Part shown: positions 1 to 55,316 of the stretch, one piece after another | Position numbering within the stretch: the first letter of the stretch is position 1 | Layout: the number at the start of each line of letters is the position of its first letter | Sequence record: OR544956 | DNA: 64,000 nt | Origin: Escherichia phage vB_EcoM_EP57 | Strand: one strand, 5' to 3' | Program-made: the position numbers and the translations under genes | The notes under the pieces: generated by a model | What the model was told of the DNA's origin: nothing | What the model saw: the letters and a program-made list of their open reading frames with translations, nothing else | Database searches by the model: none

Positions 1-481
1 CAACAAAGTTGATAAAGCGATAAAGTCTATTCGAATTCTCAACAATACTGTAAGCTTCACAAATGATCGCTGCATTGTCTTCACCAGCTTCAGGGTAAAT
101 AAACTCTTCAGAAGGTTGAGTATTGAATATAGATGTTACTGTATCTGCTCCTACTGTGACCATAACTGTCATTGAGTAATAACGTTGATCCATGTCATAA
201 GCAGATTTATAACTGTTTATTGTATCTATGTAAACGTTTTTGGCAATCTCTGCTAAAAATATTCTGTCTACAATATCTTTCTTTCTAGCAACACCAATAA
301 TCTCTTGTAAGTAAGGAACACCGAAGTTAGTATTTAAAAACCACTCCCCACGATACGTGTTCAGAGTTATCCCAAGAGTTTGTGCTGCAATTTCTGTTCT
401 GGTTGTAGTGAGGACCAAATCCCCATCATCCATGATGAGGTCGTTGTTTGGTCCAAGTTTTAAGTCAAAAGGGATTCCCAT
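1..481 (-). CDS. baseplate wedge protein (gpW/gp25-like), partial: start at 481, 3' end runs off the window
   Basis: ATG at 481..479 one nt after the upstream stop; open frame to position 1 (MGIPFDLKLGPNNDLIMDDGDLVLTT...); position after a gpV-like gene. Confidence 0.4.
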   Translation of the reverse strand, partial: MGIPFDLKLGPNNDLIMDDGDLVLTTTRTEIAAQTLGITLNTYRGEWFLNTNFGVPYLQEIIGVARKKDIVDRIFLAEIAKNVYIDTINSYKSAYDMDQRYYSMTVMVTVGADTVTSIFNTQPSEEFIYPEAGEDNAAIICEAYSIVENSNRLYRFINFV

Positions 482-482
482 G

Positions 483-1217
483 TTAGGCTCCTGTTGGTTT
501 TAAGGACTCGGCACTTGAGTTACCGCTCTGAATGTTACGAACCGTGTGCGTGTGAGTATGGAATCCGATGCCATTACCATCTGTCATCAAACCGTTCTGG
601 TCTATTTTAAGACCATTGATATCTGCCACGCCGCCTTTGAAAGTTAAATTACCACCTTTTAGATCCAAAGTCCCTGTGCCATCTGTAATAGTAATACCAG
701 AGGTGGTAATATCTATTTTCATCCCTTGACTATTCCATATTGAAATATTACCTGTAGGGTCGAAAGAAGCGTACGTGTTTTTGTTATTAGAAATAACTAC
801 CTTTTCAGAATCTACAGCTTCTGTTGAATCTGTTCCTGTAGCTATTTTGGGAATAAAACAAATAGGGTATAATCCACAAGGCTGCATAAAAGTGGATGAT
901 GAAGAGGTTTCTCCACTAGTTTGCAGTGCATTAGAAGGATCTCTTTCAGAAAATATAACAGTTCCTAAATCGCCAGCTTTAATAGGGAATGAGATTCTTC
1001 CTGTCCCACCACCATTAACCATAAAAGGAACATCTTCAAAAGTAGGGTAATCTATTTCATCTTCGCTAGATCGTGTGTTTTTAACAATAGATTCTAAGGT
1101 GACAGTCTTAGCACCATAATTAACGCCAGTCACACGGACTGGCAGGGCTGTATGGACTTCTGCTAATTGTTCTGTCATTAAGCCACGCATTGCTGTGACA
1201 AAATTTAATGCATCCAT
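483..1217 (-). CDS. baseplate spike/assembly protein (gpV-like)
   Basis: ORF track 244 aa; Gly-rich C-terminal half; sits between hub-like and W-like genes. Confidence 0.35.
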   Translation of the reverse strand: MDALNFVTAMRGLMTEQLAEVHTALPVRVTGVNYGAKTVTLESIVKNTRSSEDEIDYPTFEDVPFMVNGGGTGRISFPIKAGDLGTVIFSERDPSNALQTSGETSSSSTFMQPCGLYPICFIPKIATGTDSTEAVDSEKVVISNNKNTYASFDPTGNISIWNSQGMKIDITTSGITITDGTGTLDLKGGNLTFKGGVADINGLKIDQNGLMTDGNGIGFHTHTHTVRNIQSGNSSAESLKPTGA

Positions 1218-2227
1218 TATTTCTCCTTAGTCATTATTTCAGACACAGATACACACTCCACTTCAGTAACCCACTCTTTACCCTCTTTATCACCATTGTG
1301 AGAAACAGAAACAACTTTAAACGGACCATCATAATCTCGGCTTTTTAACCAGATTGTTTTTTCTGGTAATATTGCACCATTCATTTGGCATTTGAATTTA
1401 ACACCATCTGTAGGTTTCTTTGCCTTCTTAGAGGACTTGGTAACTTTTTTAGTAGGTTTTATATCGTTGTGGAATGGTTCTGGACTTCCTATCAGACCAG
1501 TTTCAGGGCTAATGTAGGCGCTACGTGCACTAGACATTTGTGAACGAGGAGTGACATAAACAGATCCATCTTGTATTGACACATTGTGATCAATACTTTT
1601 ACAAATATGTTCTAGGTAATGTGAAGTGTTTCCACACATAGCTGTTGCTGAAGATAAGGTTTGATCATTATCTACGTGTATATTACCTTCTGTAGTTCCT
1701 AAATCCTTTACCAAATCTGTCACAACACGTTTGATTTTAGTTCCTTTTGGATAACTGCGGCTTGTTCTTGCTTCTGCAATGTTAATACCGCCATCCAAAC
1801 AGTGTAAAGTGGTTTTCCTGTCTACCGAGTCAAAAGTATCACTAACCCACTGGATAGTTCCTTTGAAAATCATAACCAACTCTTCACCTTCGTATCCTAC
1901 CGCTAAAGCAACAGCCAAGTTATTTCGGATACCACGGTTTATATAGTTAACAGTATCATCCGAAAGGTTATAAACTACAATCTCTGCTTGGTTAGGATCT
2001 TTGTTATTATCTTTCTTAATACTGAAGGTTATTTGATGGTCTTGCAACAAATACAAATTAGAAGAGGATTTTTCTGTTGTTCCTAACTTGGTATCCAAAT
2101 CTACTGTAGATTTAAATGCCGAGTTCTTAGTTCTCTTCTGTATTGTGTTTGTGGCAGAACCAATTAATAGTTTGTATGCCCTGTTTAAATTAGGGGCAGG
2201 AGCTTTTGTATACTCTCTTTCTGCCAT
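1217..2227 (-). CDS. baseplate hub-like tail protein
   Basis: ORF track 336 aa; start overlaps downstream gene; tail module position. Confidence 0.3.
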   Translation of the reverse strand: MAEREYTKAPAPNLNRAYKLLIGSATNTIQKRTKNSAFKSTVDLDTKLGTTEKSSSNLYLLQDHQITFSIKKDNNKDPNQAEIVVYNLSDDTVNYINRGIRNNLAVALAVGYEGEELVMIFKGTIQWVSDTFDSVDRKTTLHCLDGGINIAEARTSRSYPKGTKIKRVVTDLVKDLGTTEGNIHVDNDQTLSSATAMCGNTSHYLEHICKSIDHNVSIQDGSVYVTPRSQMSSARSAYISPETGLIGSPEPFHNDIKPTKKVTKSSKKAKKPTDGVKFKCQMNGAILPEKTIWLKSRDYDGPFKVVSVSHNGDKEGKEWVTEVECVSVSEIMTKEK

Positions 2228-2236
2228 ATTATCTCC

Positions 2237-2650
2237 TTACGCCTGATTAGGTTTGTTATCAATATAAACCAATACAAAACGTTTATCTCGACCTGTAGTT
2301 GTATACCCAGGACGACCATTAATCTTGACTGTATCTACTATATATAATTGACCATCTGGCACACTTTCAAGATATTTATAAGGTTTAAGAAGATCTAAAC
2401 CATTTGTAACTTTGAAACTTATACTCGGATCATCCCCAGATAATCCCATCTGACATTGCCAAGATTCGTCCCTAGTGTTCCACCTTAAACGAATGTCATA
2501 ATCAACCCCATCCAATGTAACTGTATATGTTTGATCAGGGTACTCTTCAGTTTTCAGATACCATGCAAAATAAGTAGAATGGTCCTCCAGATAAACTGCA
2601 CTGTAGCCTGTATTACTTGTAGACCTTGTTGTTTTAGAATAAGTTGTCAC
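2237..2650 (-). CDS. hypothetical tail protein
   Basis: ORF track 137 aa; tightly packed in tail module. Confidence 0.3.
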   Translation of the reverse strand: MTTYSKTTRSTSNTGYSAVYLEDHSTYFAWYLKTEEYPDQTYTVTLDGVDYDIRLRWNTRDESWQCQMGLSGDDPSISFKVTNGLDLLKPYKYLESVPDGQLYIVDTVKINGRPGYTTTGRDKRFVLVYIDNKPNQA

Positions 2651-2652
2651 TA

Positions 2653-3354
2653 TTAACCTCCGTTGTTTGTTGGGGTATTAGTAGCTTTGGCAGTTCTTAC
2701 TGTAATATCTGACTTAGGACCATCCGAAGAAACTTGACCTTTCACATCACCACCAGTCGATTTATTTGGTGCTGTTTTTACAGCAATAGCATTAGTAGTG
2801 GCCTTAGAAACGAGACGGATTTGTTCGAACTCTAAATCAAATTGCATAGCAAATTCAGATTTATAATCATAAGAGTAGCCTTTGAGAATAACATTTTCAA
2901 AAGTTCTGTGTTCTGTCAAAAGAACTATTGGTTGTCTTGACTCAAATATTTGATCTAGATATTCTATTGCTTGAGAAATCCTTGCACCATTTACACCTGC
3001 ACTGTATAATTGATCTCGCATAAGCCGAATTGGTGTTTCGGTAATTATACCTGAAAGTTTAAATCTGTTGTTTTTTATTTGAACGTGGTCACTTACATCC
3101 GATCCTGATTCTACTGGAAAACTTGTAACATCTGCCTCACGAGTTACACCTATTTCAGGGACTGAATCGAAAGTAATTGCTTTAAAGTTTTGAATGTATT
3201 GATCACTTGAACTATTATAAACACTTGCTAAAATGCAGAAACCATTATCACCCTTTACAGTAGATGCCGAGGTATTTTTATTCTCGGTAGAGTTGATTTC
3301 CTGTTCTGCCTTATAGACGGCTCTCACCGACTGTTGTGGAGTCATTGCTGCCAT
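2653..3354 (-). CDS. hypothetical tail protein
   Basis: ORF track 233 aa; immediately downstream of tape measure gene. Confidence 0.3.
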   Translation of the reverse strand: MAAMTPQQSVRAVYKAEQEINSTENKNTSASTVKGDNGFCILASVYNSSSDQYIQNFKAITFDSVPEIGVTREADVTSFPVESGSDVSDHVQIKNNRFKLSGIITETPIRLMRDQLYSAGVNGARISQAIEYLDQIFESRQPIVLLTEHRTFENVILKGYSYDYKSEFAMQFDLEFEQIRLVSKATTNAIAVKTAPNKSTGGDVKGQVSSDGPKSDITVRTAKATNTPTNNGG

Positions 3355-3450
3355 GATAACCTCGTAGTAATGATAATGCCAAAAGGAAGATGCAAGATCT
3401 TCCCATATTGATTATTGTAACACATATAGAAACTTCGTGTCAAGGGAAAC

Positions 3451-3473
3451 GAAAAAACCCCGCCGAAGCGAGG
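3451..3473 (-). terminator. putative rho-independent terminator downstream of tape measure gene
   Basis: GC hairpin (ccccgcc..cgagg, one mismatch) followed on the minus strand by TTTTTT. Confidence 0.35.
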
Positions 3474-3480
3474 TATTTTA

Positions 3481-5325
3481 TTAACCACCAGTGTTAGATT
3501 GTCCACTTAGAGTTGAAAGAGATAAACGTTGGAAAATGCTATTTCCGCTATTTTGAATTCTTGCATCAAGAATATTTCCAAACTCTGAAGAAGGGCTGAT
3601 CGTAACTTTGATAAGATCACTTGGTATTGCTACCGTATTCTCAACAACAGGTTGATTACGAGCCAAACTTACATTAGGTGTATATGCCGACTGACGTAAA
3701 TCTTCCAGAGGATTACCAAATCCAAAAGCACGTGTCCTTGTTTGTTCTCCTCTCCACATACGACCAATATCTTGTGTATCAATACCTGTTAAATTGTACA
3801 ACCAATCTGCTACAGGATTGCTGTCTCCACTTTGCGTTGCCTCGTATGCTTTTTGTGCTAAAGATTTATTAGGATCTGTGTCTTTAACGTTATCCAACCA
3901 AGAATCATCTTTAGGTAAGGCTTTCACAAAACCCTCTAAGAAGTGGTTCTGCATACCTTGACCTACAAGCTGAACTGTTGCAGCAAAACGAGTAAACTCT
4001 TTAGAAGCATCTATTTGTTCTTGAGTTAATGTTGCACCTGTTCTTTGAAGCATTTTCAATACTTCATTATACCCTTCGCCGTTTTTACTAAACATACGTT
4101 GGTAGTGCATAAGGTCATCACCAAGGTTTTCAAGAAGTCGCCCGATTTGAGCAGAGTTCATACCTCGACGCTCACCTTCATTAACAGTAGCCTGAATAAA
4201 AGCTAAAGGATCGTTCTGTAAAGGTTTAAGCTGTTCTGGATTCCATCCAAACAAGTTCATAATGTCATTTATGCCATTATCACCGCCTTTCCACTTCCCT
4301 TCTTTCTCATTCCATTTTGAGGCTAAAACTGTATTACCAAGACGTTCACGAACGTCTTTAATATTATCTATTGACTTAATAATATTTGCAGAGTCTACAC
4401 CGTTCTGTTCACCCCAAGCTGTCATCGCTAAAATAGAGTTGGCGTTTGTCTGAACGTTTTCAGCGCCACGACTTACAAGTTTAATTCTTTCGTTAGTATT
4501 CATCAACGTGTTACCAACTACAGAACCACCTGCAAACAGCCCAGCACCTATTAAAGAGGATGCAATCATGCGTGGATTAAGACCTGCTGCACCTTCTTTT
4601 AATTGTCCATATCGACGATCACGATCACGTTTTTGTTGAGCTAATTCACGCTTACGGTTGCGTTCTATATCTCTAAGTTCACGATTTCGCATACGTATAC
4701 GCATTTTAGCTTCTGCTTCTAGCTCTCTACGAATACGGCGACGACCGCGAACCTCGTCTTCTATTTCAGCATTCTTTTCACGATGAGATCTGCGTAAGGC
4801 ATCTAACTGGTGAGCAAGAGCTTGGTTCATACGTTGAAGAGTTATTTCACCCTTTTTGTATTGCTCTACAGCTTTACCCATAACGTCCCTAGCTTCTTGC
4901 ATAGCCCCAGGACTGGCTTTACTAAATGCTCTTGCTCTGTAGTTAAAGTTCTGCAAACGAAGATTACCTAAATCTTCCCTACGTGCTGCTGCTTTAGCTT
5001 CGCGTTCAGCAGCTTTACGAGCTTTTTCTTCTTCTCTTCCTTGCGGGGTTTTAGGAGTTCTAGGTCTACCAGATCCGCCTACAGGAGCACCCGCTCCAGC
5101 GGGAGTAGGTGCTCGCATAGGTTTTTGACTTTGAGTTTGAGCTTTCTTAAGTTCACGCTCAATCTCTTTCATTTGTTGTCTAAACTTGGTCATGTTCATA
5201 GTGGGTTGCATTTTATTTGCAAACTTCTGAACACTCAACACGGCATCTTTTGCTTCCTTGAGACTGTTCTTGTCCACCTTAAACGTAACCACGTTACTAA
5301 TTTTGGAGGCGTTAATTTCTAACAA
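3481..5325 (-). CDS. tail tape measure protein
   Basis: 614 aa; long charged coiled-coil region; Gly-rich hydrophobic segment (IASSLIGAGLFAGGSVVG); directly downstream of a frameshifted chaperone pair. Confidence 0.55.
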   Translation of the reverse strand: MLEINASKISNVVTFKVDKNSLKEAKDAVLSVQKFANKMQPTMNMTKFRQQMKEIERELKKAQTQSQKPMRAPTPAGAGAPVGGSGRPRTPKTPQGREEEKARKAAEREAKAAARREDLGNLRLQNFNYRARAFSKASPGAMQEARDVMGKAVEQYKKGEITLQRMNQALAHQLDALRRSHREKNAEIEDEVRGRRRIRRELEAEAKMRIRMRNRELRDIERNRKRELAQQKRDRDRRYGQLKEGAAGLNPRMIASSLIGAGLFAGGSVVGNTLMNTNERIKLVSRGAENVQTNANSILAMTAWGEQNGVDSANIIKSIDNIKDVRERLGNTVLASKWNEKEGKWKGGDNGINDIMNLFGWNPEQLKPLQNDPLAFIQATVNEGERRGMNSAQIGRLLENLGDDLMHYQRMFSKNGEGYNEVLKMLQRTGATLTQEQIDASKEFTRFAATVQLVGQGMQNHFLEGFVKALPKDDSWLDNVKDTDPNKSLAQKAYEATQSGDSNPVADWLYNLTGIDTQDIGRMWRGEQTRTRAFGFGNPLEDLRQSAYTPNVSLARNQPVVENTVAIPSDLIKVTISPSSEFGNILDARIQNSGNSIFQRLSLSTLSGQSNTGG

Positions 5326-5345
5326 AGTATGTTCCTCGTGTTGGA

Positions 5346-6094
5346 TTAAACAAGTTTCTTAAACAAATCTGACATTTTATTTGTCTGGTTTTGATGTTTT
5401 CTCTTTATTGAAGTGTCTTTAACATACATGGCTTCAACATACTCTTCGTATGTTAAATACTCATATAGTTTTAAAAGATAATCTACACCGTAGTTATCCA
5501 ATGTTTTCAGTGTTTCCGAGGTATCTTTAACGACTTTGCAAAGAATAACCTCATACCACTTCAAAGTAAGGGTTTTCGTTGCTGTGTCGATAGCATGTTC
5601 AATCGCAGGTGTTAATTTGCTGCTAAACTCGTCATCGCCTGAAGCTGTGTGAACAGTTTTCCGAAACCTCGTTTGAAAAAAGGGCCGTAGTTTACCTCCA
5701 GAACTTTAGCAGTAAGATCTAACACTAGTTCTGGGTGAGCCATAAATAATTCATCAAAATTTTCTGCAACGTTATAACCGTCTTGAGTATAAACCTCATC
5801 TAAAATTTTACGCAAAAATACAGTTAAATTCTTTTCTTCCAAACCTGCAAAAAGTTGGATCAGTGCCATAGCAATACGTGACTCAAGGTCTTCGTCTGCG
5901 GACATTGTTGCTGTGCTATACATAGTCATAGGAACAACCAGAACACTACCCAATTCTGGAATCCTGTCAAACACTTTAGATGGACTCCACTTCATAATAC
6001 GGAAAGTAACAGATCTGTTTCCATCTAACGGAATCTCAACTACTTCTTCTGGTCGAGCATATTTTTGAATCGTGTTATCTTGTTCTTGTGACAT
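5346..6094 (-). CDS. tail assembly chaperone, -1 frameshift fusion product (GT-like)
   Basis: -1 frame is open from the slippery site (plus 5675..5681) through the 5346..5564 ORF. Confidence 0.45.
5612..6094 (-). CDS. tail assembly chaperone (short, G-like product)
   Basis: 160 aa ORF upstream of tape measure; slippery T_TTT_TTC near its 3' end. Confidence 0.5.
   Translation of the reverse strand: MSQEQDNTIQKYARPEEVVEIPLDGNRSVTFRIMKWSPSKVFDRIPELGSVLVVPMTMYSTATMSADEDLESRIAMALIQLFAGLEEKNLTVFLRKILDEVYTQDGYNVAENFDELFMAHPELVLDLTAKVLEVNYGPFFKRGFGKLFTQLQAMTSLAAN
5675..5681 (-). promoter_or_regulatory. -1 programmed ribosomal frameshift slippery heptamer T_TTT_TTC
   Basis: Minus-strand codons ccT TTT TTC in the zero frame of the chaperone gene. 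Confidence 0.45.
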
Positions 6095-6139
6095 ATTTTC
6101 CTCTCTAATGATAAAAAGGGCATTTCTGCCCTTTATTTA

Positions 6140-6591
6140 TTATTGAATTGTCAGAGCAGAGATTGAGTTAAGGGTGCTCAAACCTACACCAACTTCATTA
6201 CGCAGAAGACTTGCATCTTTAAGACCAATAACCCATTGGTTCTCTGTAATCATTTCGCCAATAGTATCTTCAGGCTGACTTTGAATCCATCCAATCGTGC
6301 TAATGTAATAGCCACGTGGGTCTTCCAAGTAAACACTGAACGCTACTTGACGAGTAGAATACATTGTTTGTGCATATGTTGCAAGCAAGACATTGTGAGT
6401 GTTCCCAAACGGTTACGACTCAAAGCTAGTGAAACGTCGCCATCAGTCCCTGAATAAGGGTTGATAATATCGTTAGATTTAGCAATAACGATTTTAGTAT
6501 CAGCCGCAAAACCCCACGGTTCCCAACCACCTAATGAAAGGATAACTTGAGATGGGTCGTAGGCCATTACGCCAGTAAGCATTTTATCCAT
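6140..6591 (-). CDS. tail tube protein-like gene, reading frame disrupted (ORFs 6343..6591 and 6140..6388)
   Basis: Two overlapping same-strand ORFs; second is in the -1 frame; RBS AAGAGGA before ATG at 6591; position between sheath-like and chaperone genes. Confidence 0.35.
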
Positions 6592-6637
6592 TATAGATCC
6601 TCTTTATTTTGATAACGGGGGCTTAACCCCCGCCGTA

Positions 6638-8011
6638 TTAGTTTGCAGTACGGTTAGTCAGGACGTTGACCTGAACTTTAACGTAATGGAAGAAGCCAGC
6701 GTAAACATATTCAATCTTCATCCCATCGACCAGACGAGCATTGATTTGCGCATCAGTCATATCGGCACGAGAAGGAATATAAACAATAGGTTTCAGATCG
6801 ACACGCAAACCAGTCTCTTCAGAAGTAACAACTTCATTAGCGATGGAACCGTTGAGGATACCTACTTGGATTGGGTTAGCCAGAACAGCTTGTCGAATCA
6901 AAGCCAGACCGTTTGAAGTAGCACGAACACCACCACCCAGCATAGACTGTTGTTTAAACAGTGTAAACAGTGATTCTTCTGTGCGAGCTTTAAACCACAA
7001 AGCATGAACAACATAGTCAACAAAGAAACCGCTAACCATCAATCCATCACGATAGAACAGAGTTCCATGCTCTTTACGATAGATGTTACCGTTCTGTTGA
7101 ACAATATTGTTTTCCGAAGTCTGATCCAGTTTCTCGATCTCTACACCTACCAGTGTTTTACCGTGAAGAGTAGTTAAACCAGGTTGACGAGAACAGATTG
7201 CACCAACAACTGCTGCTTCTGGGAATACAGAATCTGCATCGGTCATCCACAAAGCAAAGCAAGTGTTATTATAACCGAGGTCATTCAGTCGTTCCAGAAC
7301 GTTATCTTCTGCTTTCGTTTTAATTCCAGGTTCAGAACTAGAGAAGAAGTAAACTTTATCATTCTCTTCTACCCATGCAGCCAAAGCTAGAACATCTTCT
7401 GTTTCATGGGAATCTGAAAGGGTCCAGAACCAGCTACTATCAATATCATGCAGAGCAGCGATATCTTCCGTAATAGCATTAGCATAGACAGTTTCTTGAG
7501 TGAAACCTGTGCTGTCAATAGAACCAAACTTACCTTCTACTGGAGTGAAAGTCATTGCAGCGCCGTTGTTAGCTACTGTAAACAGTGGGCCATAAACAAG
7601 ATCTGCATTGATCATTTCAGTCAGACCAACTACAATCTCTTGTGCAGTTGCAGTGTCATCAGCAATGAATTTAAATTCTTTTTTCTTGGTACCATTTTTG
7701 ATGGTAATTGTGTAAGTTGCACTATCTTCTACGATTGGAGTTAGAGTAAAGTTTGTAACTTCACGCTTACCAACCATGACTTGATCTGGTGGGAACAAAC
7801 CGTTAAACAGTTTGACTGCCATAATATACGCTGGATCATTTAATCCATAACCTGCTTCCAAAAGTGCATCGGAAGAAGAGTAATATTGAATCGCTTCGCC
7901 AGTTACGTTCTGACCTGTAAGGATCAGGGGAATATCGAACTGGGTTTCACGAATTGATGTAGCACCATACAGTAAAGTTACGGTTGCTACCTTTTCACGA
8001 AAAGTTGCCAT
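6638..8011 (-). CDS. tail sheath protein-like
   Basis: 457 aa ORF directly upstream of tube-like gene; size and position typical of contractile-tail sheath. Confidence 0.4.
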   Translation of the reverse strand: MATFREKVATVTLLYGATSIRETQFDIPLILTGQNVTGEAIQYYSSSDALLEAGYGLNDPAYIMAVKLFNGLFPPDQVMVGKREVTNFTLTPIVEDSATYTITIKNGTKKKEFKFIADDTATAQEIVVGLTEMINADLVYGPLFTVANNGAAMTFTPVEGKFGSIDSTGFTQETVYANAITEDIAALHDIDSSWFWTLSDSHETEDVLALAAWVEENDKVYFFSSSEPGIKTKAEDNVLERLNDLGYNNTCFALWMTDADSVFPEAAVVGAICSRQPGLTTLHGKTLVGVEIEKLDQTSENNIVQQNGNIYRKEHGTLFYRDGLMVSGFFVDYVVHALWFKARTEESLFTLFKQQSMLGGGVRATSNGLALIRQAVLANPIQVGILNGSIANEVVTSEETGLRVDLKPIVYIPSRADMTDAQINARLVDGMKIEYVYAGFFHYVKVQVNVLTNRTAN

Positions 8012-18830: not shown

Positions 18831-18909
18831 TGGAGGCGGGAATTGGATTTGAACCAATGATCTCCAGCATATGAAACTGGCGAGGACGACCAGACTCCTC
18901 TATCCCGCT
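18831..18909 (-). tRNA. tRNA-Met (anticodon CAT), 1-72 pair unpaired
   Basis: Hand-folded cloverleaf; T-loop TTCAAAT; anticodon loop TTCATAT; CCA encoded; A1 opposite C72. Confidence 0.55.
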
Positions 18910-18915
18910 ATTATG

Positions 18916-18985
18916 TATCCCGTGCTGGATTCGAACCAGCATCACAATAAGCTGTGGAACTCTTATCCTGTAAGTCTAACGGGAA
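18916..18985 (-). tRNA. tRNA-like element, non-canonical anticodon arm (possible pseudo-tRNA)
   Basis: Canonical T-arm GCTGG-TTCGAAT-CCAGC and 6-bp acceptor stem, but no 5-bp stem with 7-nt loop can be formed; no CCA. Confidence 0.3.
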
Positions 18986-18987
18986 AC

Positions 18988-19061
18988 TGGTTGTTTCGAC
19001 AAGAATCGAACTTGTGTCTCACGATTATCAGTCGTGGGTTCTACCATTGAACTACGAAACA
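18988..19061 (-). tRNA. tRNA-Ile (anticodon GAT)
   Basis: Hand-folded; anticodon stem CACGA/TCGTG, loop CTGATAA; CCA encoded. Confidence 0.65.
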
Positions 19062-19067
19062 TTAAAT

Positions 19068-19144
19068 TGGTCGGAATTGCAGGATTCGAACCTGCGACCC
19101 TACGCTCCCAAAGCGTATGCTCTACCAAACTGAGCTAAATTCCG
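19068..19144 (-). tRNA. tRNA-Pro (anticodon TGG)
   Basis: Hand-folded; D-stem GCTC/GAGC; loop TTTGGGA; T-loop TTCGAAT; CCA encoded. Confidence 0.65.
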
Positions 19145-19237
19145 TCATAACATTCTAAAGGTACACCGCAAAAGAAAGTGTTCGGCGGCTCCTCGTTTTT
19201 AACTTCACACTTGAGGTAGTGACTCACCTTTGTTATA

Positions 19238-19313
19238 TGGCTGGTCTGTCTGGATTTGAACCAAACCTACGACAGTCAAAGTGTCGTGTGCTACCGGACT
19301 ACACTACAAACCA
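19238..19313 (-). tRNA. tRNA-Gln (anticodon TTG)
   Basis: Hand-folded; anticodon stem CGACA/TGTCG, loop CTTTGAC; CCA encoded. Confidence 0.65.
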
Positions 19314-19411
19314 ATAAATCATTTAATGAAGGGCAACCAGAAGAGGTGTGAGAGAAGGAGAAAACCATGAGTAAAAGAGAAAGTTTTCTGGCAACCCTTT
19401 ATTAAATAATT

Positions 19412-19485
19412 TGGAGCGTTCTACGAGGATCGAACTCGTGCCGCCGACTTGGAAGGACGGAATGCTACCGCTACACCAAGAACGC
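19412..19485 (-). tRNA. tRNA-Gly (anticodon TCC)
   Basis: Hand-folded; loop CTTCCAA; one U-U mismatch in anticodon stem; CCA encoded. Confidence 0.6.
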
Positions 19486-19493
19486 CCTACATC

Positions 19494-19523
19494 TTTACTA
19501 TACTACATTTTACTATTGGTTGT
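19494..19523 (-). promoter_or_regulatory. sigma70-like promoter upstream of tRNA-Gly
   Basis: Minus strand AACTATTGACAA, 18-nt spacer, TATAGT. Confidence 0.4.
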
Positions 19524-19801
19524 CAATAGTTTTATTGAGTGGGACAGTGACGAGTATCCCGTTGGGTGACTAGCCCTACGTTCGGTAAGCTAACTTAAAA
19601 TAATACAAAACCAAAGTCAAATATTATTCTTCGTTGCTGTCGATGGGAGAGCCGCTTCTCATTTTGCCCCATCCAACCCTACTCCGGTCAAGTTTCGGGT
19701 AACTCTTTTTGTGTGATCAACACAATACTAAGAACACTGTCTTTCGAACAGACCTTGTGCACAGGATACGACGATCAATCACAGTGCTCTTAATGTTGTG
19801 T

Positions 19802-19876
19802 TGGTGCTCCCACACTGAATCGAACAGAGATCCACGGATTACAAAACCGTTGTAATAGCCATTATACTATAGGAGC
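19802..19876 (-). tRNA. tRNA-Thr (anticodon TGT)
   Basis: Hand-folded; loop TTTGTAA; T-loop TTCGATT; CCA encoded; one mismatch at 31-39. Confidence 0.55.
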
Positions 19877-19882
19877 AAAGCT

Positions 19883-19959
19883 GGGACTCGGCAGGATTCG
19901 ATACCTGCAATTCCAGAAGCCTCTTGGCGACTGGGGGTTTACCTTAACTCTACAAGTCC
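19883..19959 (-). tRNA. tRNA-like element, non-canonical (8-nt T-loop, no standard anticodon arm)
   Basis: 7-bp acceptor stem GGACTTG/CGAGTCC; T-loop TATCGAAT; central region forms an irregular hairpin; no CCA. Confidence 0.3.
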
Positions 19960-19966
19960 ATAATTC

Positions 19967-20052
19967 TGGCGATGAGTATAGGATTTGAACCTATATCGTT
20001 CTTTCGAACACGGATTAACAGTCCGCCGCTTAAACCATTCAGCCAACTCATC
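19967..20052 (-). tRNA. class II (Ser-type) tRNA with anticodon GTT
   Basis: 86 nt; Ser-like D-arm TG-GCT-GAATGGTTTA-AGC; anticodon arm GCGGA-CTGTTAA-TCCGT; 15-nt variable arm with GTTC/GAAC stem; G73; CCA. Confidence 0.5.
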
Positions 20053-20058
20053 TTAATT

Positions 20059-20146
20059 TGGTGGTGAGTGATGGAGTTGAACCACCCGAATCGCAATGAT
20101 AACAGATTTACAGTCTGCCCCGCTACCCCTACGGAATTAACTCACC
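20059..20146 (-). tRNA. tRNA-Tyr (anticodon GTA)
   Basis: 88 nt class II; anticodon arm GCAGA-CTGTAAA-TCTGT; T-loop TTCAACT; CCA. Confidence 0.65.
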
Positions 20147-20224
20147 TAAATACTAATATTTAAATTCTTTTTAAAATAGCCAGTGTTCACACCACTAACT
20201 ATGTAAGCCATATTAAAAAGAACT

Positions 20225-20310
20225 TGGCGGTAGATGTAGGACTCGAACCTACACGCCGTTTCCGACTACAGTTTAGCAAACTGTCGTGGCTACCATTTCA
20301 CCAATCTACC
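20225..20310 (-). tRNA. tRNA-Ser (anticodon GCT)
   Basis: 86 nt class II; anticodon arm ACAGT-TTGCTAA-ACTGT; G73; CCA. Confidence 0.65.
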
Positions 20311-20315
20311 TAATC

Positions 20316-20406
20316 TGGCGGAAGGAGGGAGAGTCGAACTCCCAAGGCTCTTTCAAGCTCGGCGGTTTTCAAGACCGTTTTCGTCGCCACGTCGATTTGC
20401 CCTTCC
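20316..20406 (-). tRNA. tRNA-Ser (anticodon TGA), D-arm degenerate
   Basis: 91 nt; anticodon arm CGGT-CTTGAAA-ACCG; variable-arm hairpin GCTT-GAAA-GAGC; G73; CCA; D region lacks U8 and a regular stem. Confidence 0.5.
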
Positions 20407-20640
20407 ATACTTATAATCTAACATAAAATAATGTTTGTTGTCAATAGTTTTTTAAAACATTTTACCATGAATGGTGACTCCACCAACCCCCGTTCTCCAC
20501 GAACGGTGCTCTTCGAGCATTTATGTCTTCTAATATAACCGTGGCCTTTGTTTATAATGTCTGACATACTTGCCTCATTCTCTGCCACCATGATCAGTAG
20601 TGGGTTCAAATTACTTGAGCTAATTCATGTTAAAATGTTC

Positions 20641-20715
20641 TGGTGTCTTTACAAGGAATCGAACCTTGACTAAGAGTTTAGAAGACTCCTGTGCTATCCA
20701 TTACACCATAAAGAC
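20641..20715 (-). tRNA. tRNA-Arg (anticodon TCT)
   Basis: Hand-folded; anticodon arm GGAGT-CTTCTAA-ACTCT; CCA. Confidence 0.65.
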
Positions 20716-20717
20716 GT

Positions 20718-20792
20718 TGGTGGCCCTGGCTGGTTTCGATCCAGCTACCTATCGGTTATGAGCCGACAGCTCTCCCATTGAGCTACAGGGCC
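20718..20792 (-). tRNA. tRNA-Met or tRNA-Ile2 (anticodon CAT)
   Basis: Hand-folded; D-stem GCTC/GAGC; anticodon arm GTCGG-CTCATAA-CCGAT; T-loop ATCGAAA; CCA. Confidence 0.6.
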
Positions 20793-21584: not shown

Positions 21585-21782
21585 TCAACTAGGAATAATT
21601 TTATCCCTTTTGGTTTCATAACCAGTCCAATCTAAATCCTCCCAGCCTTCATCATCGTCTAACACATTGTCATCATCATAAGATGCAATGTTATAAATAG
21701 AACGTGGATTACAAGACATACAATCTTTAATAGGCACATGATGCCATTTGCACGGATTCTCACTAATCATTGCACACCTCAT
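21585..21782 (-). CDS. hypothetical protein
   Basis: 65 aa, Cys-rich N-terminus, acidic C-terminus. Confidence 0.3.
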   Translation of the reverse strand: MRCAMISENPCKWHHVPIKDCMSCNPRSIYNIASYDDDNVLDDDEGWEDLDWTGYETKRDKIIPS

Positions 21783-22192
21783 CTATAGATCAAGTATTAT
21801 TTATAATAATTTATTATTTTATTTTTAATTGATAGAAGTTGATCTGTACGTACCAGTTCTGATACACTGTACCTGTTTGTTAGATCTAATAATTATTTAT
21901 TATTAATATTTAATAATTATTAATCTAGTACGGAGTACAGTACTTGAGTACAGAGTACTACATCAACGACCTAAAACCTTAACTCGCTGCGCTCGTTAAT
22001 AGATTTCTAGGGTAACATACTTCGAACACAAAAGTCAAGAGTTTTATTAAAAATTATTTTCTGTGTGCAAAAACCTTGCTTAAACAGGTAGCAATAGTAT
22101 TAAGAGGCTGTAGAGCAAGTTTACTTACTAGGTAAGGTGATTTATCATCTTATATATAAAAAGTGCGTCAGAGACGCGTTTAGGAGGCTAGA

Positions 22193-54547: not shown

Positions 54548-54746
54548 GACTAGGATTCATAGCAAAAGCTTTGAAAGTTGTTATATCATGACTAACATTA
54601 AAACTAACACCTTTTACTTTCTCTAGTATTTGAACTTTCGTCTCTCCGTCCCACGGTAGGATGATAACACCATCTTCTGTGATCAACCACCAATGGTTCT
54701 CTCCATCTCGTGAATCTTTTGCTTTGTATAGAAAATTGGAACTCAT
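54531..54746 (-). CDS. hypothetical protein
   Basis: 71 aa; RBS GGAGGA; promoter-like TTGACA upstream. Confidence 0.35.
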   Translation of the reverse strand: MSSNFLYKAKDSRDGENHWWLITEDGVIILPWDGETKVQILEKVKGVSFNVSHDITTFKAFAMNPSLVAEW

Positions 54747-55106
54747 TCTTCCTCCTGTTCGGTATTATTCACTTGTGAGACACAATGTAACACAAGCTTT
54801 GTGAGTTTGTCAAGGATCTAATTACATTCTACAGAAGAAGAGGGTTAATAACTATAGGAATAGTCTTACTATAGGTGCAATACTAGTTAAGAGTTAGATT
54901 GATAGGTAAGACTTATCTTAAACAGATAATTGATAGGTGAATCAGCATTGACTTTTTCAAAAAAATATGGTACCCTAAACATATGTTTACGAGCGATAGC
55001 GAGTAGTAGATTTCTATATAATAATGTTTCATGTTACTCACGATAGTGAGGTATGAAACGTAAGTGAAGGTAGATAAACTATGATCATCTATCTACCATC
55101 TATTAA

Positions 55107-55316
55107 TCAATATAGATCTAATGTTAGACTAACAGTTATCCAACAAACAATAGCAGTCCATATAACAAGTAATGATCTACAAACTACATCCCATTCAAAT
55201 ACATTGTATGTTAACCATTCTCCCATCACAACAGAAGAACCCAACCAACATCCAACAATAACTATAATCCAATAAAAGAATCCTACAGTAGAGTATACAG
55301 CAAAAGCTTTTAACAT
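55107..55316 (-). CDS. small membrane protein
   Basis: 69 aa, strongly hydrophobic; ATG after GGAGGA overlapping upstream stop. Confidence 0.35.
   Translation of the reverse strand: MLKAFAVYSTVGFFYWIIVIVGCWLGSSVVMGEWLTYNVFEWDVVCRSLLVIWTAIVCWITVSLTLDLY

Follow-up and report, generated by a model that had tools for sequence, protein, structure and literature searches.

Genomic Setting and Features of the Gap

The window, i.e., the whole 64,000-nt stretch of Escherichia phage vB_EcoM_EP57 (OR544956) analysed here, is ~99% identical to the Phapecoctavirus genomes 536P1, TSP7_1 and ASO2A (phAPEC8-like, Stephanstirmvirinae). Between two early genes of the minus strand, it features a gene-free gap at 54747–55106. 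The first-pass annotation of this DNA had correctly recognized the gap but had put its size at 330 bp, instead of 360 bp. In ASO2A, the gap is located ~20 kb inside a one-directional array of ~70 small early genes, in which an interval of ~1.5 kb (5151–6660) is devoid of annotated genes. The GC content of the gap is 30–32% (vs. 38% for the genome), and the GC skew is positive only within 54750–55100, where it resembles that of the plus-strand genes of the same genome, both flanking minus-strand genes being strongly negative. The features on which our analysis is based are the following:

54746 (ATG), minus strand: gene for a 71-aa hypothetical protein, with a GGAGG ribosome-binding site; downstream neighbour of the gap.
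54784–54813, minus strand: predicted sigma-70-like promoter for the 71-aa gene (TTGACA, 18 nt, TGtTACATT), with 10 of the 12 consensus positions and a TG before the -10.
54853–54876, plus strand: two ACTATAGG copies, i.e., the first two “iterons”, present in the sequence.
54898–54938, plus strand: exact pair of ATTGATAGGT boxes with a 31-nt spacing, preceding the plus-strand promoter.
54948–54976, plus strand: predicted sigma-70-type promoter, with TTGACT (54948–54953), a 17-nt spacer and the extended -10 TGgTACCCT (54968–54976); conserved across genera.
54977–54988, plus strand: short palindrome AAACATATGTTT, with the predicted start site at its centre.
54987–55006, plus strand: first leader hairpin, in which an outer UUAC/GUAG stem is followed by two tandem G·A pairs, then by GC/GC pairing and a closing GAUA loop; supported by covariation.
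55026–55059, plus strand: second leader hairpin (nested palindrome), with an outer stem GTTTCAT/ATGAAAC and an inner stem CTCAC/GTGAG; identified by folds and compensatory changes.
55069–55097, no strand assigned: hairpin GGTAGATA...TATCTACC, just past the stop codon of the 69-aa gene and conserved in phiWec190.
55107 (stop), minus strand: gene for a 69-aa hypothetical two-helix membrane protein, convergent with the plus-strand promoter.
21969–22047, minus strand: second copy of the promoter-plus-leader unit (TTGACT, 18 nt, TGtTACCCT, then AACGAGCGCAGCGAGTTAAG), recovered by a profile search (nhmmer, E = 2.9e-16).

No coding gene is supported in the gap, as already proposed, and three candidate frames were rejected. 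The 39-aa minus-strand ORF phAPEC8_0059 (~54913–55032), annotated in relatives, is interrupted by stop codons in phiWec190, PsgM04F, Tr1, KP2025 and arall, and its frame is shifted by a 1-nt indel inside the conserved block; this ORF and its copies should be dropped from annotations. The 64-aa plus-strand ORF at 55081–55275 has lost its ATG in phage ukendt, while the 7-codon mini-ORF starting at ATG 54984 is absent from Tr1, KP2025 and arall.

Regarding transcription termination, ASO2A carries an annotated minus-strand terminator (TransTermHP, WebGeSTer) matching 55059–55097. Our scan of the gap for intrinsic terminators returned no site on either strand, nor is there a T-run after the hairpins, and the first 1 kb after the plus-strand promoter contains no predicted terminator on that strand. 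Elsewhere in ASO2A (146.9–150.1 kb), several sets are annotated in which a promoter is followed ~10 nt later by a terminator and then by a gene. Since these hairpins would lie in 5' leaders, the so-called terminators of that region may be leader stem-loops rather than terminators.

The Repeat Cluster Upstream of the Plus-Strand Promoter

The four (T/G)ATAGG(T/A) cores previously reported as iteron-like are present as described (TATAGGAATAG at 54853, TATAGGTGCAAT at 54870, GATAGGTAAGAC at 54901 and GATAGGTGAATC at 54932), and so are the two CGATAG(C/T)GAG copies (CGATAGCGAG at 54994–55003 and CGATAGTGAG at 55041–55050). These repeat units are 7–10 nt long, and the spacing of the cores is irregular (17, 31 and 31 nt), so that the locus lacks the four or more regularly spaced and conserved direct repeats of ~17–22 bp that characterize iteron origins such as lambda ori and P1 oriR. 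Over the whole window, KATAGGW is not enriched (25 observed vs. 27.8 expected), and four occurrences of a 5-mer within 90 nt are seen at ~19 other places. For exact 10-mers recurring within 50 nt, the window count is 9, while shuffled sequences give 3.9 on average and 9 at most. Neither ATTGATAGGT nor ACTATAGG shows window-wide enrichment, these longer forms of the motif occurring outside the gap as often as expected by chance. Most of the iteron cluster is due to chance.

Across relatives, these repeats are only partly conserved, the ATTGATAGGT boxes being kept and the TATAGG pair being lost. In phage ukendt (95% identical over the region), the second TATAGG is replaced by TATGGG, and the sequence is most variable at 54877–54897 and nearly unchanged from 54898 on; in phiWec190, Tr1, KP2025 and arall, both TATAGG copies are missing. 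This pair is probably incidental and without function. We also considered ACTATAGG as the end of a T7 promoter, but the upstream part does not match and the likeness is a coincidence. As for the two ATTGATAGGT boxes, they are both retained in ukendt and in the phiWec190 lineage, and they are the only repeats to persist in a related lineage; the pair alone is not statistically significant. The nearer box ends exactly 10 nt before the -35 hexamer. Because a RATMGG hexamer is found at this fixed distance of 10 nt in 5/5 lineages with the backward-facing type of promoter copy (see below), whereas neither of the other two types has it, one ATTGATAGGT box is probably an upstream element specific to the backward-facing copy.

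A Predicted Extended -10 Promoter Shared by 17 Copies

The plus-strand promoter was compared across 17 distinct copies of the unit, gathered from phage records, IMG/VR contigs and bacterial genomes. TGn-TACCCTA and a spacer length of 17–18 nt are kept in 17/17 copies, the CCC within the -10 being invariant, while the sequence of the spacer varies. The -35 hexamer corresponds to TTGAC(T/A) in most copies and to TTGATT or TTTTAC in three of them. Fixed hexamers and spacing, combined with a variable spacer, are the signature of a sigma-70 promoter, here of the predicted extended -10 type, and the elements usually demanded of this type (a spacing of 16–18 nt, TGn, A at position 2 and T at position 6) are all found. 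The -10 hexamer TACCCT itself matches only 3/6 consensus positions and was not called by a simple promoter scan. The seventh base after TACCCT is a purine in 14/17 copies, and transcription is predicted to start near A54983. Most copies have a start-site palindrome of another sequence than that of the gap, e.g., ACCCCGAAGGGT, ACCTGAAAGGT, CACGAAGTG and TAATAATATATTA.

Several other identities were tried for this block and rejected. TACCCTA or TGnTACCCTA is not a phage-specific motif used many times, as the window has only the two unit copies. Sigma factors 32, 28, 24 and 54 do not fit the hexamers and spacing (by eye). The sequence GCGATAGCGAG resembles the RfaH ops element, but three key positions differ and the T is missing from other copies, which points to chance. 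Finally, on inspection, reading the conserved block as a terminator or promoter of the minus strand yields neither a consistent stem with a T-run nor a hexamer pair.

Two Conserved Hairpins in the Predicted Leader

The first hairpin spans ~+5 to +24 from the predicted start, and its 3' half is CGATAGCGAG. Its tandem G·A pairs are formed by 5'-CGAG-3' on both sides, the loop being 3–4 nt long among copies, and the core CGAGCG-N1-2-AGCGAG is invariant in 16 distinct copies. In the alignment of these 16 copies, 83.9% of the cells of the outer stem are paired, vs. 26–44% in slid controls, and neither the observed pairing nor the covariation score was reached in any of 500 shuffles. The pair beside the invariant C-G is AU in eight copies and CG in six, and U·G pairs are frequent, which implies that the helix belongs to the strand that the promoter would transcribe. 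This covariation is equally compatible with a hairpin in single-stranded DNA of the same strand. Single-sequence folds agree with the first hairpin. The locus does contain one of the features expected of nut/put-type sites, namely a conserved RNA hairpin, proximal to a promoter and supported by covariation.

The second hairpin corresponds to the nested palindrome of the first-pass annotation, which is indeed present at 55026–55059 (GTTTCAT-GTTA-CTCAC-GATA-GTGAG-GTAT-GAAAC) and which folds better than shuffled sequence on both strands (z ~-3). Elsewhere, its arms have other sequences, i.e., ATTGC/GCAAT in phiWec190, GTTCCTG/CAGGAAC in phi92, TTCCATG/CATGGAA in arall and CTTTCATG/CATGAAAG in the bacterial islands described below, so the predicted stem is kept through compensatory changes. 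Two G·U pairs gained on the plus strand would be mismatches on the minus strand. The consensus fold of this hairpin is uninformative, loop lengths differing between copies. Taken together, the CGATAG(C/T)GAG copies and the palindrome have the character of RNA-type hairpins downstream of a promoter, not that of protein-binding iterons.

Searching Rfam 15, at both gathering and permissive thresholds, with 54700–55200 yielded no match up to E = 10, nor did the island loci, whereas the whole window returned tRNAs only. Two known RNA motifs were rejected for the core of the first hairpin: the hammerhead, as the core is devoid of CUGAUGA/GAAA, and the kink-turn, as it is devoid of a 3-nt bulge. Our literature search retrieved no paper with the motif strings or describing promoters of Stephanstirmvirinae.

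Copies of the Unit in Related Phages

The phiWec190/PsgM04F lineage (83% identical) aligns with the gap only from the first ATTGATAGGT box on. In comparisons between genera (phi92 and other Justusliebigvirus, Citrobacter phage Tr1, Klebsiella phage KP2025), where the neighbouring genes no longer align, recognizable sequence is limited to ~54944–55040, with ~79% identity to Justusliebigvirus.

In the window, the second copy sits in a divergent gap at ~22 kb and is co-directional with a leftward block carrying a tRNA array (10–11 tRNA genes at 18831–20792 on the minus strand; an Rfam tRNA match at 20062–20146 was not called by ARAGORN). A third copy is found at ~136.85 kb in the 99%-identical ASO2A, co-directional with the downstream replication-gene block. 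Three copies are also present in each of three IMG/VR contigs of ~150 kb (phi92-like, KP2025-like and phiWec190-like). Matches from the first IMG/VR pattern scan were mostly due to chance, and many of those from the second IMG/VR scan and from the bacterial scan, lacking a promoter context, were either due to chance or part of an unrelated widespread hairpin repeat.

The divergent gap of the second copy has sequence peculiarities of its own (21780–22050). Five GTACT-containing repeats (~21935–21972) adjoin the promoter copy, while long palindromes made of A/T only occur at 21887–21924, with a related block at 21781–21818. These repeats and palindromes are located at the minimum of the cumulative GC skew, and a repeat_region is annotated there in one related record. 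This region looks more origin-like than the 54.9-kb site.

The copy of the gap opposes the genes around it in the window, phiWec190, PsgM04F, Tr1, KP2025 and arall. It runs against the ~70 early genes, and its orientation is the same in all five lineages examined. Its position in arall is syntenic, next to a gene homologous to the same downstream neighbour. Since the gene on which it converges varies from lineage to lineage (an unrelated soluble protein is encoded there in Tr1, KP2025 and arall), a dedicated antisense target is unlikely. A type I toxin-antitoxin system was rejected, because this convergent gene codes for a two-helix membrane protein in no lineage other than the window and phiWec190. 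In phi92 (1505–1846) and in a KP2025-like contig, a co-directional copy is directly followed by the gene of a small hydrophobic protein (phi92 gp208, 68 aa). In the window and phiWec190, the backward copy instead converges on the two-helix gene. This association of the unit with a small membrane-protein gene is not general.

Integrase Islands in Enterobacteria

Outside of these phages, islands in Citrobacter sp. OP27, in two Buttiauxella assemblies and in one Scandinavium assembly contain the promoter, the G·A hairpin and a CATGTTA hairpin right behind an integrase gene, and one IMG/VR contig likewise carries the promoter-leader unit directly after an integrase gene. The island of Citrobacter sp. 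OP27 (locus coordinates 238–5332) is composed of an integrase (Phage_integrase + DUF6538), the unit, a second strong promoter, four small ORFs and a DUF5906 protein. Over the ~800 nt following the island leader, the opposite strand has no conserved frame, the frames being broken. No protein is common to the island and the phage, and the island unit has no match in complete E. coli genomes. To account for the shared unit, we suggest that the islands may be phage satellites that copied a control signal of their helper phage.

Interpretation of the Gap

Our preferred reading, to which we assign a probability of about 0.62, is that the gap holds one copy of a recurring promoter-plus-leader unit, where a sigma-70-type promoter would drive a structured leader and a non-coding antisense RNA. 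The conservation, promoter geometry, strand-specific covariation, copy number, orientation and lack of coding are observed, while the firing of the promoter, the end of its RNA and the role of its leader are inferred. The host sigma-70 RNA polymerase would start near 54983 from TTGACT-17-TGgTACCCT, the leader transcript would fold into the two hairpins (54987–55006 and 55026–55059), and the RNA would then enter, in antisense orientation, the 3' end of the 69-aa membrane-protein gene that faces it. The product would be non-coding because this copy opposes the early genes and no open reading frame lies downstream. On the co-directional transcripts (tRNA-plus-structural and replication blocks), the leader hairpin would most likely be a cis-acting RNA signal, an assumption that we make because it is common to three transcription units and to the islands; it might either load or bind a trans-acting factor or act as a 5' stabilizer. 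The orphan copy of the gap would then make an antisense or decoy RNA. The earlier suggestion of a multi-site regulatory region was broadly right, as the gap combines the conserved plus-strand promoter and its structured leader with the minus-strand promoter of the next gene and with hairpins at the end of the upstream gene.

The other suggestion, i.e., a candidate replication origin with iterons, is not supported, the repeats being short, irregular and statistically ordinary, and two of the four not being conserved. In such an origin, the four KATAGGW would bind an initiator and the palindrome would be the unwinding or loading site. The four same-strand copies do lie within 86 nt, and two exact 10-mers stand three helical turns apart, as a pair conserved in the phiWec190 lineage. 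Yet, KATAGGW shows no enrichment, the window has many comparable clusters, units of 7–10 nt are irregularly spaced, the TATAGG pair is not conserved, and the palindrome covaries like a hairpin rather than being kept as a fixed protein-binding sequence. Besides, no initiator gene is found near the gap, its flanking genes encoding the 69-aa and 71-aa hypothetical proteins, and in ASO2A the primase/helicase and polymerase genes are ~85–90 kb away. Cumulative GC skew, which had been proposed as a check, has its large-scale turning points in the window at ~22 kb and 51–52 kb, not at 54.9 kb, and these coincide with changes in gene strand. The probability of an iteron-type origin, which conservation across relatives already largely refutes, is accordingly close to nil. 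An origin of the T4 ori(uvsY)/ori(34) type deserves a little more credit. T4 origins are promoters followed by an unwinding element, and the transcript of the gap, hybridized at the AT-rich stretch 55004–55025, could prime the leading strand, with the G·A hairpins acting in the displaced strand. This would give a role to an orphan promoter that opposes its neighbours and has no gene to express, it would make use of the AT-rich stretch after the first hairpin (in a gap of 30–32% GC), and covariation cannot separate RNA from single-stranded DNA. On the other side of the balance, the other two copies head ordinary gene blocks and look like working promoters, the skew turns at ~22 kb and 51–52 kb, such AT richness is nothing unusual between genes of a genome with 38% GC, and nothing in the sequence specifically requires replication. 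We regard a promoter-primed origin as improbable and advise against annotating the gap 54747–55106 as an origin.

A further possibility, which is compatible with the promoter-leader reading, is that of an operator cluster between divergent promoters, in which the ATTGATAGGT boxes (and possibly TATAGG) would bind a phage or host transcription factor acting on the plus-strand promoter, on the minus-strand promoter at 54813–54784, or on both. All four repeats are indeed comprised within the 135 bp that separate the two -35 hexamers, and RATMGG is positioned exactly 10 nt upstream of the -35 in five lineages, while being absent from the other two copy types. The same motif, however, does not recur at other promoters of the window, a single box is deeply conserved, matches to the host IHF consensus are incomplete (by eye) and no candidate factor was identified, which leaves such a cluster unlikely. 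Alternatively, the gap could be an ordinary one, with hairpins ending the upstream minus-strand transcription, a promoter for the next gene and neutral sequence in between. The equivalent of 55059–55097 is annotated as a minus-strand terminator in ASO2A, and a good minus-strand promoter follows at 54813–54784. Nevertheless, on the minus strand no T-run comes after either hairpin, and in phi92 the same hairpin is placed between the promoter and a gene. Moreover, neutral sequence would not stay ~80% identical across genera with unalignable flanking genes, nor would it recur three times per genome or covary in a strand-specific way. This reading, already contradicted for 54944–55059, is very improbable for the gap.

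Coming back to the promoter-plus-leader unit, it provides a testable handle on regulation in the subfamily, with three copies per genome and strong comparative support. How phAPEC8- and phi92-like phages regulate their genes is essentially uncharted, even though they are often isolated for the therapy of E. coli and Klebsiella infections, and the islands bearing the same unit hint at a helper-satellite relationship for Stephanstirmvirinae. A bolder proposal, made by analogy and rather doubtful in our eyes, is that the G·A hairpin might be the recognition site of an undescribed Stephanstirmvirinae system, ideally a nut/put-like processive antitermination or marking of the three transcripts, and that the islands might be helper-induced satellites. 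If this were true, the marked transcripts would be those of the tRNA-plus-structural and replication blocks, together with an antisense RNA running back through the early array and helping to shut it off, and the helper phage would switch on the integrase-DUF5906 islands via the copied promoter and leader.

Comparison with Known Systems

The closest parallels to the hairpin are lambda nutL/nutR (boxB) and HK022 putL/putR, in which a short conserved hairpin likewise comes just after several near-identical phage promoters, in few copies per genome heading long, terminator-rich blocks, and with purine-rich loops of the GNRA/GNNA type. In ASO2A, the gene blocks downstream of the unit carry many predicted terminators. 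Unlike nut and put, the unit has no sequence similarity to these sites, no boxA, no Rfam match and no identified N-like or other partner protein; one of its copies opposes genes, and antitermination would be an extrapolation.

With respect to the orphan copy, lambda oop and other convergent phage antisense RNAs are alike in that a small promoter of the early region fires against the gene flow, is aimed at the 3' end of the neighbour and has no coding frame after it. However, oop has a strong terminator and a fixed target (cII), whereas the unit has no predicted terminator and faces a convergent gene that varies; moreover, the conserved part of the unit is its 5' leader, not the overlap. T4 ori(uvsY) and ori(34) share with the gap an orphan or dual-use promoter followed by AT-rich DNA, where the transcript could be the functional product. 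They differ from the unit in that the latter has no MotA-type promoter, is off the skew turning point and has sister copies similar to ordinary operon promoters. Regarding the promoter itself, strong sigma-70 early promoters of lytic coliphages, such as T7 A1 and T5 N25, also combine a TTGACT -35 with a 17–18 nt spacer, have A/T tracts in the spacer (as do some copies of the unit) and occur in a few near-identical copies per genome, but the invariant TACCCT, the obligatory TG extension and the conserved structured leader directly after are peculiar to the unit.

Finally, the invariant core of the first hairpin, C-GA-GC-(GNA or GNNA)-GC-GA-G, is arranged exactly as in tandem sheared G·A motifs (5'-CGAG-3'/5'-CGAG-3') and in the GCGAAGC mini-hairpin, generic G·A modules that, unlike the unit, have no promoter attached. 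The same core, with flanking stems of its own (e.g., ATTCC-GAGCGAAGCGA-GGAAT), occurs in many unrelated bacterial genomes. Repeats such as GTCATTCCGAGCGAAGCGAGGAATC were observed in Bacteroidota, Acidobacteriota, Chloroflexota and Desulfovibrio cuneatus (in several copies), again with a C-GA-GC-GNA-GC-GA-G core and its own closing stem. This core appears to be a widespread stable hairpin module devoid of promoter context, and having it in common tells of hairpin stability, not of function.
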